NCBI GenBank assembly: GCA_051313645.2
Contig: JBNRSN020000014.1
Span: 142,600,001-142,664,000, forward strand
DNA: 64,000 nt
Direction of reading: 5' to 3'
DNA from: Centroscyllium fabricii
Lineage: Eukaryota
Below, one piece after another: positions 16,375 to 39,300 of the stretch (its first letter is position 1; every line of letters begins with the position of its first letter). The notes beneath the pieces were generated by a model. It did no database searches, had not been told where the DNA came from, and saw nothing but the letters and a program-made list of their open reading frames with translations. A program made the position numbers and the translations under genes.

Positions 16375-17005
16375 GTGTCGCGCGGAGGCGGAGCGTTCAG
16401 TCGATAGAAGTTTGGAGGTGGGGTCTGGAGGCTGAGGGTTGGCCGACGGCCTATTTCACTCACCAGCTTTCCTGAGCTTCCCAACCTGCGAGCCGGCCAA
16501 CGCCATGTAGTTGGAGTCGGTGACGACCCGGACCCGCACCCCGCGGCTATGCACCACCAGCACCGAGCCGCTGAGCTCCCAGCTGGAGATGCTGAAGACG
16601 CAGACGTCGAGCGAGCGGCGAGCGCTGAGCAGCAGGCGGGCCAGGCTGCTGAGCGCGCTCTCCTGGTGCGGCAGGCCGCAGTCACAGCGGCCCGGCGCCA
16701 ACAGCGGCCGCAAGCACGTCAGCGGCGCCGGGAAGAAGAGCACCCGCGGCCGTCGCTCGCGAAGCCGCTCGAGGTAGCGGAGCAGCTGGTAGAGACCCTC
16801 GGCTGCGAGAGAGAGGCCGGCCAGCGCCACCAGGCCTCGCCACACCGACACGGTCGGGGAGATCATGGCGCCGCCTTCACCCAGCGAAAACCCACCCGCG
16901 TGCTGCGCGCCAAATGCAGCCTCGCGTTCGCGACGTCTTGACGTAAAATGCGTCAATCGCGGCGTTCACCGTGTCGACGTTAATTGCGTCAACTGCCCGC
17001 CACAT
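16375..17005 (-). promoter_or_regulatory. CpG island / PLD6 promoter with CRE-like and MYB-like motifs
   Basis: Very CpG-dense compared with the flanks. TTGACGTAA at 16938, two TGCGTCAA motifs at 16949 and 16985, and CAACTGCC at 16990-16997. Confidence 0.7.
16464..16866 (-). CDS. PLD6: PLD6 (mitochondrial cardiolipin hydrolase / Zucchini) coding exon 1
   Basis: GGCGGCGCC-ATG context at 16866. N-terminal hydrophobic anchor, then VLFFP..TC..CDCGLPH (CCCH zinc motif), SARRSLDVCVF and RGVRVRVVTDSNYMALAGSQVGKLRKAG. A GTGAGT donor at 16463 follows at the KAG| intron position known for PLD6. The HKD-encoding exon 2 was not found. Confidence 0.93.
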
Positions 17006-30300: not shown

Positions 30301-33300
30301 GGGATATGAGGAGAAGGCAGGGACAGGGTACTGAGTTTGGATGATCAGCCATGATCCCATTGAATGGCGGAGCAGGCTCGAGGGGCCGAATGGCCGACTC
30401 CTGCTCCGATCTTCTTTGTTTCTATGATTGATCGGCACCTCAACTCCATTTTCCTGCCTTTGCTCCATATCCATTGATCCCCTAACCTAACAAAAATCAA
30501 TCGATTTCAGTCTTGAAAGCTCCAGTTGACTCCCAGCATCACAGCCTTTTGCGAGAGAGAGAGTTCCAAATTTCCACGACCCTGTGTGTGAAAAAGTGCT
30601 TCCTGATTTCGCTCCTATCTGGCCTTGCTTTAATTCTAAGATTATGTCCCATCGTTCTTGATTTCCCCACCAGAGGAAATAGTTTCTCTGTATGTACCCT
30701 ATCAAATATTTAACATTTTAAACACCTCTAATTCGATAGCAATAAATCTACTCGCAGTGATAGAGTAGCTTTATTACTGTATTAATGTGTGTTTCAGTGT
30801 CGCAGTGCATGAGCACTGAATTCAAATTTATTACATGAAGGGGGAGACGTCTGTCAGTGTCCTGCAGTCAACAGCAGTCAAAGGGTTCAGGTTGCGTTGC
30901 CAACACTGGTTGGATAGATTTCTGGAGGTGTCATCGCAGGACCTTCTGCCTCCAGCTTCCCCACCCCCACACTCCTGCCATTGGTCGTGCAACACGTCCA
31001 TACTCGCCTTGCCTTCCCACGTCAATTGGAAAGCGAATATACCCGATTGGATGATTCTTCATCGTCAGTCAAACAGCCTTCCCCCCCCCCCCCCCCAATG
31101 TCTGATCTCTCTATAACTAATGAGCAAAAGTGTTCAAAGAATTCTTTTTTGAAAAAACATTTTTTTATTGCCTGTATAATTTTCCTCCTGTGTGGCTCAC
31201 AGCAGTTTCCTGGAGATTAGTCTTTAATTCCTGAAGACTCCAGGACAATCTTGGAGGGTTTTCAACCCTAGATTCAGGGCAACTACCAATACAGGTCCAG
31301 CACCGTTAATCCGGACACCGTTAATCCGGAAACTTCAGTCGTCCGGAACGAATCTGCCTGACTGGTCTGCGCATGCGCAAAATGGCCACCGCGCTTGGCT
31401 GCGCATGCCCGGGCCTCTGCCCGACTGGTCTGCGCATGCGCAAAATGGCCGCCACGCTTGGCTGCGCATGCCCGGGCCTCTCCCTGAACGATTGATGTTT
31501 CGGCGAGCGCATGCACAGACCATTCAAAATGGCCGCCGGCATGCGCCGGATTAACGTTGGTCCTGTACAAGTTAAACAGGTTGTTGTGAACTCACCTGAG
31601 TACATCAGTGCCAAAATGCTCCATGTTCCGAGGATTTCCAAACCGGTGTTTCCTGTTGTAATGATTGAACCACCCTTTGATCTCACTGTTTAAACAGAGC
31701 ACAAATTCAAATAAAATACATTGAATCAGCTGTTCATGGAAAACTCTTAAACCCGAAAAAATACTGCGATACCGTACAAGTGCTCAATATCAGAATTGAT
31801 TTTCTCGATGGCGCTGCCTCCGAATCACCACACTGTCCTCACTGTGGCACATTCCAATGAGTCCTCCACCAGATTTTGGCAGCAGTTCACCACTGGAGGA
31901 TCAGGGCGCCCATGGGTCTAACGAGTGGTGCTCAGGGTTAAATGCGCCGTTCCAGCAAATTCTGGGTCATGTATCTCTGTTACACAGTGGATTGGGGGCT
32001 GCAACTGTGGAAAGGATAGCGGTAATAGATCAAGAGGCAGCTAAATAATGAGGTGGAGGGGTGGATCATCAGACACCTGTACAGGTGTTACAATCCATCT
32101 GTACTGAGGCTGCAGAGTATGGACTGAACTAATCAACCTTCAGAGAGGTGAAGATATAGATAGAGACATGGCGATAAAGGGAGGCAGATAGAGCGATACA
32201 AACGGCTTTATAGGGGGATGAAAAACCATGAGCAAAGAGGGGCTAGTGTGTGGACAAACTCCATTTTGCTGGTTCCGGCCCGACTAACTAATTCCCTGGC
32301 CAAGCTGAAACGATGAAACATTCTGATCATTGAGTAGTAAGCATCAAACCTTTTAATCAATACGAGAGCTCATTGCACTGGGAGCATTCAGCACAGGCAA
32401 GGGAGATTATAAGGATTTATTTCACTCAAAGGAGTTATTTAAAATTATGAAGGGACAGGACAGAGTAAATGGAAACCAATGGTTTCCAGTGATTGAAGGG
32501 TCTAGAATTAAGGGAACATAGATACAAGATTAAATGTAAGAAGCTGTAGGACAAAGAGCAGGAGAGTTATTTCAAAAAATACAAACAAACAGAGGGTTGT
32601 GAGGCAGTCAGTGATTGAAGCAGAGACTGTGTCACCATTTAAGAATAGGTTAGATAGGTGGTTCAAGGAAAGGGGAATAAAGGGATGTGGGAACAAAGTG
32701 GACACATGGGATCAGAACTGCTGCTCGTGTGGAGAATAAATACCAACACGGGCTGGTTGGGCTGAACAGCCCATTTCTGTGCTGTACTTTCTACGGAATA
32801 GATTACCACAAGAGTCTATTGAAGCAGAGTTAATCACAACGTTTGAAAGAGAATTAGATGAGGATTTGAAGTAAAATACTTGATGCACAATCAGTCAAAG
32901 GTTCGATGCAACCGAGGCTTTTATTGACTTAGAACGGTTGCTACAGGTCTAGGCGATCTTCAGAGTCAAAGTGAAAGCACAAGGGTGTGCAAGCACATTT
33001 ATACCCAGGTTGTGGGCGGAGCCTGGAGAGGAAGCTAAGAAGCGGAGTCCTCCCAGACAAGTCCTCCCAGTCAAGACAAGGAGTCACAACTATACATACA
33101 GACACAGTAATTACAAGGAGGGGACACAAGGGGGAGACACTATACAATATATACAATATGGTGGTTTACCACAATACTAAAGAACAAGGAAATGGGATTG
33201 AGGAGAGCTAGCACAATTGCACAGTCACAACAGGCCAAACGGTCTCCTCCTGTACTGACATTTCTATGAACCTGTACGCCTCACCTGTTACTTTCCAGAA

Positions 33301-36300
33301 CCCGCGTTACATCAGATTTCAGATTTTGATAAATCCAATGAACCATTTGATAAATCTCAGCCCCTGCAAATGTGCCGGCTCCTTCACTGTGGAGAATGAT
33401 GAGCAGACACAAGAATTAGCAACAACCGAGCAGTTCAGAGTGTTTCAACAGCGTTCTACAAACAATAAAAGGGCACACGCACCGTTTGGTAACACAGGGC
33501 GCAACAAAACCGCTTGCCTGGGGCAAGCAAAATGCGCCATCAGGCAAGCAAAAGAAAATCGCACTTGCCCGACCGGGCAAGTGCGATGTGCGGACATGAC
33601 CAGAGTTGCCGGGTCTGGCAATAGCGCTGAGGGTGCAGGGCGCGACAAAACCGCTTGCCCGATTCCCCGGGGCAAGCAAAATGCGCTGTCGGGTAGCAGA
33701 AGAAAATCTCACTTGCCCGACCGGGCAAGCAATGTGCGGACATGACCCGAGTTGCCGGGTCCGGCAATAGCGTCGAGGGTGTGTGCACGCAGCCAGGCGG
33801 CGAGCGCCGATGGAGAGGCTACAGGGCGCGACAAAACCACGAGGCCACGGGAACAGGTGGTTGGATCCCGCCCTGGAGGCGGCTGCGGATGAGCAGGGCG
33901 CGCTTCGGCCGATGGGTTCTGAACTCTGCCCCGCCCGAGCTCGGCCAATCACAGCCCAGCAGTTTTCTCGCGCTCCGGCGGTTTTGAAGCGCTGCACCCT
34001 GCCCGTGCTCGGCCAATCATAGCTTGCTCCGGCTGCCCGTCCGCCACAGCAGCTCGAACCGAGCAGGAAAGAGAGGGCGATAGTAAAATACTGCAGGTGC
34101 TGGAAATCCAAAATAACAACAGAAAATGCTGGAAAAACTCAGCAGGCCAAGCAGCATCGATGGAGAGAAATATAGAGTCGATAGAAAAATATAAAAGCCC
34201 CGCTTCGTCCTGCCCCCAACCACCACCTCATTAAAAGGAGAAAACCACAAAGGCTGCAAAAAAGAACTGAGAAAAAGATGAACAGATGGTGAGTGAAGGA
34301 AATAACAACAAAAAAGGCTGGAGAAAGTCAGCAGGCCAGGCAGCATCGGTGGAGAGAGAAGCAGAGTTGACGTTTCAGCTCGATGACCTTTTAAAAAAAA
34401 AATCGACTTGGTGAATGAAGGGACTGGGATGAGGTGACAGCGAACTTCCTCTCGGACACGGACACCCAGAGACCGAATCCTGGGACACTGACACCCAGAG
34501 ACAGTGACCAGGGCGCGACAAAACTGCTTGCCCGCTCGATGATCGAGGCCACGGGAATGGGTGGGTGGATCCCGCCCTGGAGGCGGGTGCGGATTGGCAG
34601 GCGGGGCCGGGTGGCGCGTCGGCGATTGGAGGAGACGGCGTGTCAATCAGGGGACGGGGCAGCAGTCGGATTAGGTGGAGTGGGCTGGTGGCGCGCAGCA
34701 AGAGTGGGTCGGTGCCGTCGACCCGCTGAGGGGGGAGAGAAAAAACCGGAGCGGCTGCTGGACGAAGGTAGGCGGGGAGAGAGAGAGAGTGAGGGGGCCT
34801 GCGGAGGCTTCACAGAAAGTTTGGTAAATGAGGGAAGAATGTTCAGAGTAGAGAGAGAGACCCTGGCAGAGAGGGGCAGAAACCGGGCCAGTGCAACTAA
34901 AGGCACAATCACAATCTATGGCTTTATATTGAAGCATTTTAATAAAAATGTAAAATCTTTATTTATTTCTTTAAACATTTCAGGCAAGTGAAATTTGTGT
35001 TTGGGCAAGTGTTTTAGAAATCCACTTGCCCAATAGGGCAAGTGAAAAAAATTTTTTTTGTAGCACCCTGGGGTGTGCGAGCGCCGATGGAGAGGCTGCC
35101 CGAGATTCCCCGCCGCGGGTCAGTTGCTCATTCAGCCAGGCGCTGCTGTCGAATGGCGGGCCCCGGTTGCACCTCCCCAAGCGGACAGTGGATGAGGTGA
35201 GCCGCCTTTTGCTTCTCTCTCAGCGCATCTGTACCATGTGTTAATGGCATTAAATACTGTGCAAATTGCAGTCGTTCATTTCTGATTGCTGGTGCTTATG
35301 ATTGTATAAAATGTGTGTTTTATCATTTCTTGGGGGGCAAGGTTTTCAGAGTGCCTGTCTGTGGTGGGAATTCATCTCGGACAGCAACGTCTGTGTATAT
35401 TCGTACCAGGATAATTGGCTTATAAGAGAGGAATCCCTGAGGTCTGTGCATTGGTGTTAACGTGTTTAGCTTGCTATAAGAGTTGGACAATGTATCATCT
35501 TTTAGAATCAATGAGAGAACAGGAAGGACAGGATTTTGTCAATCTCTGCAGCAGTTACTGGTAACTGAGCTGTGATCAGATTCTAGTTCAGAACAGGAGA
35601 TTGTTAACTGACAGAAATGGGGGCTCAACTAATGTCAGGACTCCGAGATGGCCGTCACCTGTACAGGCGCAGCTTTCTTTGTCGTCATGTCTGTGGTTAA
35701 TAAGGTGATTATTGACACTAAGAGCACCCTCACTAATGGAGGACTGAGAGCTGTGGACGGTGGGGCTGGGCGGCGCGGCGGGGATTGGAGGAGACGGTGT
35801 GTCAATCAGGGGACGGGGCAGCAGTCGGGTTAGGTGGAGCGGGCCGGTGGCGCGCGGCAAGAGTGGGTCGGTGCCGTCGACCCGCTGAGGGGGGAGAGAA
35901 AAAACCGGAGCAGCTTCTGAGAAGAAAAAACCCCAACAATTTAAAGCAAGGGAGTTGACTTCAGGGCACAGAAACACAGAAGATAGGAGCAGGAGTAGGC
36001 CATTCGGCCCTTCAAGCCTGCTCCGCCATTCAATGAGATCATGGCTAATCATCCAAACCCAGCACCCTGTCCCTGCCTTGTCCCCATATCCCTCGATCCC
36101 TATCGAATCTGCACCGACACATATCCCACCCTATCCCCGTAACCCCACATATTCAATCCCCCTAACACTAAGGGTCAATTTATCCTGGCCAATCAACCTA
36201 ACCCGCACATCTTTGGACTGTGGGAGGAAACCGGAGCACCCGGAGGAAACCCACGCAGACACGGGGAGAATGTGCAAACTCCACACAGATAGTCACCCGA

Positions 36301-39300
36301 GGCTGGACTTGAACCCGGGTCTCCAGTGCTGTGAGGTAACAGTGCTGACCACTATGCCACCGTGCCGCCCAAGTTTGGGCTGGATAGCTAGCCCGCGTCC
36401 AGATGTGCTGCACGGTGTGCACAGCTGGTGAGAAGCTGCCTGGAAGAGCTTTGCAGTTTAGCTTGTGGTTTCCCGCCCATTAATCTGTGATCAGTGCCAT
36501 CCATCCTTCCTGCGGACCTGCCTTACAGAGCACCGTTCGATCAATTATAAAATCTTTATAACTACTCCTCAGAGGGGGGAAATATATATATAAAAGAATG
36601 GTGGGGGAAATGGAAGTGAAGGAGAAGCCGAGACCCAGTCCCGACTATTTAATGCAGCTGTTGAACGACAAGAAGCTGACGTCGAGCCTGCCCAACTTTT
36701 GCGGCATCTTCATGCACCTGGAGCGGCTGCTGGATGAAGGTAGGCGGGGAGAGAGTGAGGGAGCCCGCGGCATGCAGAGGCTTCACAAAGTTTGGTAAAT
36801 GAGGGAAGAATGTTCAGAGCAGAGAGAGAGACCCTGGCAGAGAGGGGAAGAAACCGGGCCAATGCAACTAAAGGCACAATCACAATCTATAGCTTTACAC
36901 TGAAGCATTTTAATAAAAATGTAAAATCTTTATTTATTTCTTTAAACATTTTGGGCAAGTGAAATTTGTGTTCGGGCAAGTGTTTTAGAAATCCAAAGTG
37001 ATTTTTTTTTTTTTGTAGCACCCTGTAACAGCACAGCGCTACATTGCGAGAGAAAAATGGAAGTAAGTTAGCAAACGCGTGTCGAATGTCTTGTGAACGT
37101 GACATTTAAGTTGCTTTTATATTGTGCAAGATCCGTGCTAGCACCGATGTCTCCTGATGCTGGGTCTCGAGCAGCCATCTGCAACCCAGTAGGTAAACCT
37201 GGTCGAGATTTCCAAAGGCTGGCAGCCAGGAAGACCCTGGCCTTAGCAAATCCAGCAAGATTACCTGTGGGCTGCAGCCAGCGACCTACACCCAGCGTCG
37301 GGAACTGGTGCTGATAGCATGGGATTCACAAACCATAAATGCAGCTGTTAGTAACCAGGTTTAACTAGTGGAAGGATATTAAGTTCAGAAAGTATATTTA
37401 TCGAACAGTTTTGAAACATCAGAGACAGAATAGAACACACCAAGGACTTGTAAATCTCCACATCACTTCCGTTCCCTTTTCAATTTGCTTCCCTTCTCTT
37501 CCAGTTGGGGAGTGCACTATTCACCACCCCAGCAATGGTCCTAAAGCACCCCTAAGGGCATTAGACCACCCCTCAACAACCTGTATATATCACCTTTAAC
37601 GCAGAAAAATATCCCAAGGTGCTTCATAGTTGAGGATCAAACCAGAGCAAGAGGGAAACCAAAGACATGATCAAAGAGGTAGGTTTTAAACAGGCTTTTA
37701 AAAGTGGGGTGAGCAAGGTGAAAGGGTTTAAAAGGAGAGTTTTGGAGTGTAGGGGCAAGATGGCCGACAGTGTGACCACTGGGGGCAGTGGTAAGGACGC
37801 ACAGTAGACCAGAGTTAGAAGAGTAGAGGGTGCCATCAGGGACTTGAGGCTGGAGGAGCTTGTAGAGGTTGGGAGTGACTTGTAGATGAGGATGAGAATT
37901 TTGAAGTTGTGCTGAGAGATGGGCAACCAATGAAGCTTGACAAGAACAGAGAACATAAGTGACAGGTCTTGTGCGATAGGATGCAGGTAGACGAGTTCTG
38001 GATCGCTTGGAGTTTGTGTCGGCTGGATCTTGGGAGGCTGGCGGACGGTCCTGAATGTGACAAAAAGCATTGAGGAGGGTTTGAGTAGTAGTGGGGCGAG
38101 GTAGGAATGGAGACAGAAGGCAGAAGTTACTGGTCTTGGTGACAACTTAGATTTGGGTTTCGGGACTTTTTCTATGTTAACGACGGCATATAAATGCAAG
38201 TTGTCATTGGGTTTGAAGCTCAGCCCAGAGTCAAGCATAATGTGTATCGCTGGATTGCCTCGAGTGGGCATCCACTGGTAGACGATGGAATCAGATGAAG
38301 GGCTTCTGGCCGAGGTGAAAAAGGGTCACATCAGTATTGTCAATGTTGACACACAAGAAATTCTGGCTTATCCAGGACACCTCTACCCCACACATCTTCC
38401 GCATGCCTAGCCTTAATTCCCACGCCCCCGCCTCTGCTTCAGGTCACAAACCCCTGCTCAACTGCTTATTGTGATGTCGGAGCCTATTTCTATTCATGAC
38501 CCCCCCAAAAGCAGAATTTCAGAAAAGATGATTTACCTCACATTGTTTTCTAGGTCGATATTTTTAAATCCCAAAATCTGCTGTGAATTGGTTTTTGCCT
38601 GATGTGTAAAAGAACCTGTGGAAGCAAATGGAAAAAATGTCGGAGAAAGATAGTCACACTGCAGGGGCTCCATTTCTCACCAATAAAAACTCATTCAGGT
38701 GTAAAGGGAGCTTTACTCTGCATCTAACGTGTGCTGTACCTGTCCTAGGAGTGTTTGACAATGTAGAGGGAGCTGTTCTCCAGCACCAACATAAAATGTG
38801 TCAAAAAAAAGTGATCTTTTGCTCAGTGTGACTGGTATTAAATAAATTGTAGGGTTCTTGCTTTAACAAGGGTCTCAGTTTTCGGTGACATCTCAGGGGT
38901 CAGGTACTGCATCAGCATGATACGCAATGTACAGATGTGTTTGACAAGGGTTCTCTGTAGCAGAACATAAAGACAAGTTGCACCAATGAATATTACGCTG
39001 CAGGTATGTGGGAAGACAATCTATATTAAATGGAGAAAGGGAGGGAGTACTGTATGAAATATATACAGTATAGTGAGCAGGAGCAGTGTACAAGATGTAC
39101 ACGGTCAACTGTAGCTCAGTGGGTAGCACCCTCGCCTCAGTCAGAAGAACATAACATAACATAAGAAATAGGAGCAGGAGTCAGCCAATCGGCCCCTCGA
39201 GCCTGCTCCGCCATTCAACAAGGTCATGGCTGATCTGATCCGAACCTCAATTTTACTTTTACTCTCCATCCCGCCCAAACCCATGTGATCACCCGGGAGA

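Follow-up and report, generated by a model that had tools for sequence, protein, structure and literature searches.

A stretch of 64,000 nt from the shark Centroscyllium fabricii (GenBank assembly GCA_051313645.2, contig JBNRSN020000014.1, positions 142,600,001 to 142,664,000, forward strand; hereafter the window) contains a transposon copy of 3,531 bp (33495-37025), inside which lies an open first coding exon of a quaking gene. How did this piece of a host gene come to lie between transposon ends, which gene did it come from, and does it do anything there? A first-pass annotation, made from the letters alone, had described the copy as a Pack-type, hAT5-like element carrying promoter, 5' untranslated region (UTR) and exon 1 of QKI. 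We consider it probable that the copy belongs to a non-autonomous family with terminal inverted repeats (TIRs), that this family captured once a piece of quaking-A running from promoter to splice donor, and that it was spread by a transposase supplied in trans, the piece being a passenger.

The ends of the element read CAGGGCGCAACAAAA from 33495 and, in reverse complement from 37025, CAGGGTGCTACAAAA. These 15-bp TIRs are identical at 13/15 positions and are flanked by an exact TAACA target-site duplication (TSD; 33490-33494 / 37026-37030). No Pfam transposase was detected in the scanned frames of at least 62 aa of the element (the scan took in 107 out of 184 frames lying at 14-45 kb). Mobility was assessed on 249 loci, which yielded 83 distinct elements with both outer ends. 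Exact duplications of 5-9 bp flank 41 of these 83 elements vs 19 of 6,806 mismatched flank pairs, which excludes a chance origin of the TAACA duplication. They measure 5 bp in 23 elements, 6 bp in 8 and 7 bp in 10 (8 or 9 bp in none); at one mismatch or fewer, 64/83 elements have a duplication. Among the 31 exon-bearing elements, 15 have exact duplications and all 15 are different; the cargo has thus moved with the ends many times. Ends, duplication, lack of a recognisable transposase and movement of the element with its cargo had all been described correctly in the first-pass annotation.

The donor gene was placed in the assembly by means of a shark quaking-A protein, a search with the KH domain having failed to locate it. 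The true gene, with exons 1-6 in order, is on the minus strand of contig C834 (G000:C834), at most 2.4 Mb from the end of that contig. Its exon 2 is 47/48 like that of shark quaking-A, and a tetrapod-type exon 2 sits on another contig, C1044. Judged from sequence and database names, rather than from synteny or a tree, the donor is quaking-A, a fish-specific paralogue, and not the orthologue of human QKI; the earlier naming of the cargo holds as far as quaking exon 1 is concerned, but not as to the paralogue. Two studies (PMC4699748, PMC11457510) regard qkia as a paralogue that tetrapods have lost and give it a muscle role in zebrafish. When the assembly is searched with a Quaking protein, a hundred decoys come out nearly equal to the parent exon.

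Counted from the ATG, the element aligns with the gene from -72 to +173 (84 %), i.e. over UTR, exon 1, donor and ~32 nt of intron 1, and from -245 to -89 (78 %). In an unplaced contig whose exon is identical (L037), the promoter has 12 ATTGG boxes in -560..-200, and copies of one subfamily (subfamily I) reach ~-465 of this promoter in 3/4 cases tested (scores 61-65; shuffle maxima 31-33). The captured cargo measures ~0.5-0.6 kb and consists of promoter, 5'UTR, exon 1 and donor. As promoter and intron start align with the true locus, capture took place at the DNA level, as initially proposed. The GC- and CCAAT-rich block corresponds indeed to the promoter region of the gene, and the exon, open over its 47 codons, ends at the GT of 36740. 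The putative 5'UTR was right for 36536-36597 only; a ~185-bp insert and a repeat resembling a short interspersed element (SINE) upstream of it do not come from the gene. The extent of the capture was mapped on the true locus, its breakpoints not to the base. Past the intron match, a weak resemblance of the element to the unit of a minisatellite (score 47; shuffle maximum 36) may extend from 36770 to about 36860, and the element may preserve an older state of the start of quaking-A intron 1. In today's gene, this intron opens with ~5 kb of GA-rich minisatellite (L031/L032). The family TIR was not found within 29.7 kb around exon 1 of the gene. In the window, tblastn with a 380-aa shark protein gave a single match, i.e. 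no further quaking exon.

Exact whole-genome counts, each with a control of 0, were used for family size; the gene itself is counted in, and a few unrelated genes may be as well. A 24-nt left-terminus pattern gave 3,077 matches (~10 of the first 30 being internal copies), a promoter 18-mer 2,328, an exon-end 18-mer 742 and a mid-exon 25-mer 110. Copies with cargo thus number hundreds to thousands. Since 12/20 of the 25-mer matches also contain the exon-end 18-mer, exon-end copies can be roughly estimated at ~1,200; 52/129 sampled promoter blocks contain their 18-mer, which gives a rough estimate of ~5,800 blocks. A figure of ~600 copies derived from the 25-mer (110 matches, present in 9/52 copies) was replaced by the 18-mer count. 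On these estimates, the promoter blocks dispersed by the family number in the thousands and its exon-donor cassettes, of putative activity, about a thousand. With a 409-nt query, 40/40 scored matches were 93-100 % alike and spread over many contigs. The first 30 exon-end matches contained the exon/intron junction in 30/30 cases, most of the exon in 25/30 and a right TIR within 1.5 kb in 22/30.

Among 74 aligned copies, 42 contain the ~185-bp UTR insert (subfamily II, which is over-sampled by the window-derived query) and 32 do not. Sister subfamilies have the same two ends with other fillers and no quaking sequence, one of them with the 3' end of a long interspersed element (LINE). With the parent of the cargo outside the element and cargo-free sisters sharing its ends, the Pack-type interpretation was borne out. 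At up to five sites, the aligned copies (n=77) have a state in common that is not that of the gene (59-77/77 per site), which argues for a single capture. One sister subfamily (L053:855-980, L200-L219) contains an open 42-codon stretch (150/150 scored matches 88-100 % alike), for which a search gave no protein homologue (a weak negative), and the LINE 3' end recurs in many of its copies. At three loci (L081, L092, L093), the exon has its first ~45 nt duplicated in tandem. Between 0.24 and 0.48 of the words of the window occur in sequencing runs of four organisms (A-D) and of one fish gut metagenome, which is only a hint at the spread of the family; small shares in three more organisms (E-G) were left out of account, and the absence of RNA runs from the list has no bearing on expression.

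As to the mechanism, a single event of template switching, in the course of DNA repair or replication, likely brought in the quaking-A piece; deletions and additional fillers would have come after this capture. Scars resembling those of repair are present, i.e. doubled termini, a 21-bp duplication and a deletion between 9-bp repeats. Amplification would be due to a transposase supplied from elsewhere, probably of hAT type. A CAG at the start of the TIR is typical of hAT elements; the canonical hAT TSD of 8 bp is absent (0 exact in 83 elements). The hAT5-like label proposed initially would call for 5-bp TSDs; 5 bp is the commonest duplication length in the family, with 6 and 7 bp occurring as well. 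The evidence supports the wording 'hAT-like, 5-7-bp duplication', hAT5 being unproven. One family member (L158) lies beside a hAT remnant and not around it. A young hAT family (L143 and four other places) has open frames of up to 871 aa with identical scores, and ends unlike those of the quaking-cargo family.

The family and today's gene differ in the exon by five synonymous and no amino-acid changes. In the 5' region, 27/189 columns (14 %) differ, vs 6.0 % among copies (22/27 copies, leaving out five that are >13 % diverged; 9.4 % with them); an earlier value of 34/173 columns became 27/189 with a larger copy set. These differences include 15 AT-to-GC changes in the gene (3.5 expected) and three GC-to-AT (P 0.0075), the classes other than AT-to-GC amounting to 12 vs 7.9 expected. 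Common repeats are also more diverged near the gene (median 85 %, n=12) than elsewhere (89 %, n=133; P 0.01). Fast, GC-biased local evolution of the gene itself most likely explains this pattern, i.e. the extra distance would have arisen on the gene's side, through GC-biased substitution near a chromosome end.

We regard it as unlikely that the promoter and exon of the gene were instead driven away from their copies by a conflict with transposon silencing, or that the cargo is the exon of a foreign shark. A silencing conflict would account for five silent, no amino-acid and many GC-ward differences, and a maize study reportedly proposed that mass-copied gene sequence conflicts with the silencing of transposons by the host. 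If true, either would be without precedent among vertebrate cut-and-paste elements, within the literature searched. Quite unlikely, in our view, is a cargo stemming from the working quaking-A of a closely related shark, whether by horizontal transfer or by introgression, or else from a duplicate that has since been lost. Had the cargo drifted neutrally for as long as the gene, amino-acid changes would be expected and the split of five to none would have a P of 0.004, so that a long neutral stay in the element is improbable. This favours such a donor, as do the 5'-region distance in excess of that among copies, the change of the gene's intron start into a 5-kb repeat and the window's words (0.24-0.48) in runs of the four organisms. 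Val7 together with Ser14 is, however, common to the cargo and the host gene and occurs in 0/42 other cartilaginous-fish quaking-A N-termini among those listed, which places the donor in the host lineage or very near it. The non-coding excess, moreover, is all AT-to-GC, and the assembly contains no second quaking-A with exons 2-5.

Selection on the copied exon was assessed on 25 copies chosen by the 18-mer only, whose mean divergence from the commonest letter per column is 4.5 %. They show 109 nonsynonymous to 26 synonymous changes, vs 112:29 sites, and 7/25 are frameshifted. The ratio of nonsynonymous to synonymous polymorphism (pN/pS) in other copy sets was 0.71 (n=29), 2.4 (n=25), 1.2 (n=7) and 0.17 (n=16, chosen by protein likeness), changes common to several copies not being independent in these counts. 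The exon copies appear to have decayed neutrally since amplification; most likely, the exon is on average a passenger, and individual copies may have been co-opted. An active cargo, with a promoter that aids spread or drives chimeric transcripts, or an exon giving a dimerisation-only peptide that acts on Quaking proteins, is in our judgement very unlikely. It would fit the promoter block being ~threefold commoner than the exon and persisting with the donor in an exon-deleted subfamily, the retention of the GT donor in 109/120 copies and the highest copy numbers reached by promoter and first-exon Helitrons of bats, according to the accessible text of PMC4224331. Exon substitutions are nevertheless neutral, with frameshifts as given above, and cargo-free sister subfamilies are numerous too (150/150 and 40/40 scored matches). 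In the window copy, moreover, the SINE-like repeat and the insert part the promoter from the exon, whose frame ends 19 codons beyond the donor. A quaking mRNA retrocopied inside a transposon, or a window holding the real gene or a segmental duplicate of it, is next to impossible: an open exon with UTR only would suit it, but the presence of promoter and intron, across the exon/intron border, refutes a retrocopy, exon 2 never follows while the real gene and its tetrapod-type paralogue lie on C834 and C1044, and flanks are unrelated between copies.

Several observations weigh against the favoured account, i.e. single capture of host quaking-A, mobilisation in trans and passenger cargo. The five synonymous differences exceed the 1.3 expected from the 4.5 % divergence of the copies (P 0.010), three of the five, being exchanges between G and C, are not accounted for by GC bias, and the direction of changes between gene and family was inferred without an outgroup. 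Exact duplications are lacking in 42/83 elements, in 19 of them even at one mismatch, and duplication length is mixed (5, 6 and 7 bp). An autonomous partner, supposed in the first-pass annotation, was not found: 0/20 examined hAT loci, among 150 PF05699 matches listed, are bounded by the family ends, and two internal segments of sister elements, when followed up, led only to further short elements. The pN/pS was 0.71 in a DNA-selected set and 0.17 in the protein-selected set (the latter picked for protein likeness). Finally, the capture breakpoints cannot be fixed to the base, as both ends fade into repeats whose sequence in the gene is no longer the original one, and microhomology was not shown.

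The window copy is composite: one family member is nested in another, and there are extra fillers as well as a SINE-like insertion (Table 1). Left termini are present at four places (33495, 33636, 33822, 34509) and right termini at two (35070, 37025); the repeated termini, the inner promoter block with its exon end and the SINE-like repeat had gone unnoticed in the first-pass annotation. The 21-bp duplication that bounds the inner member (33800-33820 = 35077-35097) is not accompanied by a 5-bp one, and another family member (L008) is continuous across this site, without the nested insert. The UTR and most of exon 1 of the inner member are deleted between two 9-bp GGAGCGGCT repeats, and a promoter/exon-end join of this type is present in 11/30 left-terminus loci. 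The first filler of the inner member contains, besides its CCAAT boxes, a GC box and a GGCGG...TTTGAA stretch, which we take to resemble a cell-cycle-dependent element/cell cycle genes homology region (CDE/CHR); by its motifs, this filler may possibly be a second captured promoter. Fillers other than the quaking-A cargo gave no match in roughly 74 kb around quaking-A.

Table 1. Features of the transposon copy in the window (positions in the 64,000-nt stretch)
Feature	Position	Strand	Basis
Left TSD, TAACA	33490..33494	+	Sequence
Outer left terminus: 15-bp TIR and subterminal CTTGCCC repeats	33495..33635	+	24-nt pattern, 3,077 exact genomic matches, control 0
Left terminus, tandem second copy, 84 % alike	33636..33781	+	Sequence comparison
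Nested inner family member with own left and right termini	33822..35070	+	21-bp duplication at its borders
Filler with two CCAAT boxes, common to many copies	33900..34079	+	Family comparison
29-bp minisatellite, 2 units in window copy, dozens in other copies	34451..34508	+	Family comparison
Internal left-TIR copy, fixed in one subfamily	34509..34534	+	Family comparison
quaking-A promoter block fused to last 20 nt of exon 1 and GT donor	34578..34769	+	Gene alignment
Filler common to one subfamily	35098..35760	+	40/40 scored matches 91-100 % alike
Captured quaking-A promoter / 5' region	35770..35940	+	Gene -245 to -89 from ATG, 78 % alike
Common SINE-like repeat, in window copy only	35967..36371	+	Many copies of the repeat in the window; absent from other family members
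Larger part of ~185-bp insert marking subfamily II	36372..36535	+	No counterpart in the gene's UTR
Captured quaking-A 5'UTR	36536..36597	+	Gene alignment
Captured quaking-A coding exon 1, 47 codons, STAR dimerisation region, open	36598..36739	+	Pfam STAR_dimer, E 1e-15
GT donor and start of intron 1	36740..36770	+	Matches gene to +173
Right terminus, common to cargo-free sister elements; TIR 37011-37025	36876..37025	+	Family comparison
Right TSD, TAACA	37026..37030	+	Sequence

Outside the element, a 63-bp tandem repeat with CTGCGCATGCGCA palindromes (31353-31538) resembles a filler of the family member L051. An open exon with a PLD-like domain (16459-16965, minus strand; PLDc_2, E 1e-5, below the cut-off) may be the first exon of PLD6/MitoPLD; the element lies ~16.5 kb upstream of it.

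Plant Pack-MULE or Pack-TYPE elements, like the quaking-A family, are non-autonomous and contain gene fragments and several fillers, with a bias to GC-rich 5' ends. Pack-MULEs have long TIRs and TSDs of 8-11 bp, and they inhabit plants, whereas the quaking-A family inhabits a vertebrate.

Among animals, a survey of 100 metazoan genomes lists, in its accessible text, 370 Pack-TIRs, none of them from the elephant shark, the only cartilaginous fish included; 4 (1.4 %) are given as multicopy; hAT is the commonest carrier (208/370), and template switching is proposed as a capture route (PMC8277862). The quaking-A family resembles these Pack-TIRs in being non-autonomous, with host genomic sequence enclosed by its TIRs, and in having an element-free parent copy, different TSDs and a captured GC-rich 5' region. 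The multicopy cases described there have 3-4 copies, e.g. Pack-hAT-N8_XT of Xenopus tropicalis (Tan et al. 2021, PMC8277862), in contrast with ~740 exon-end and >2,300 promoter exact matches here. QKI is absent from the 12 supplementary files searched of this survey (PMC8277862). The HelibatN3 and other Myotis Helitrons, as far as the accessible text goes, likewise comprise promoter, 5'UTR, first exon and part of the first intron (of NUBPL), in a thousand copies, with further pieces captured sequentially (Thomas et al. 2014, PMC4224331); these are rolling-circle elements without TIRs, unlike the quaking-A family with its TIRs and 5-7-bp duplications. Short TIR, subterminal repeats and duplications of 5, 6 or 7 bp instead of 8 are shared with hAT5, hAT6 and hAT7, groups which the accessible part of PMC12730594 defines by transposase, with one TSD length each; the single set of ends of the quaking-A family shows all three lengths, with no transposase in hand. 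No literature on a quaking-A element or on Pack elements in sharks was found, within a scope that leaves out most subscription papers, Repbase Reports and shark repeat supplements. The quaking-A family is thus an animal Pack-TIR of unusually high copy number, Pack-TIRs in animals being already known, and it is set apart here from the literature, not from Repbase or Dfam.

In the animal-wide survey, gene capture by TIR transposons is almost always single-copy; the quaking-A family shows an amplification like that of plant elements or bat Helitrons, with a copy number two to three orders of magnitude above that of described multicopy Pack-TIRs. The occurrence of 5-, 6- and 7-bp duplications in a single family is relevant to the grouping of hAT elements by TSD length. 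For annotation, the near-equal exon decoys that surround the parent exon in Quaking protein searches call for caution. The family provides about a thousand neutral replicas of an old allele, that of a conserved exon and its promoter; they make testable the rate and direction of CpG-rich promoter evolution, as well as the question whether a vertebrate donor gene is harmed or reshaped by its capture.

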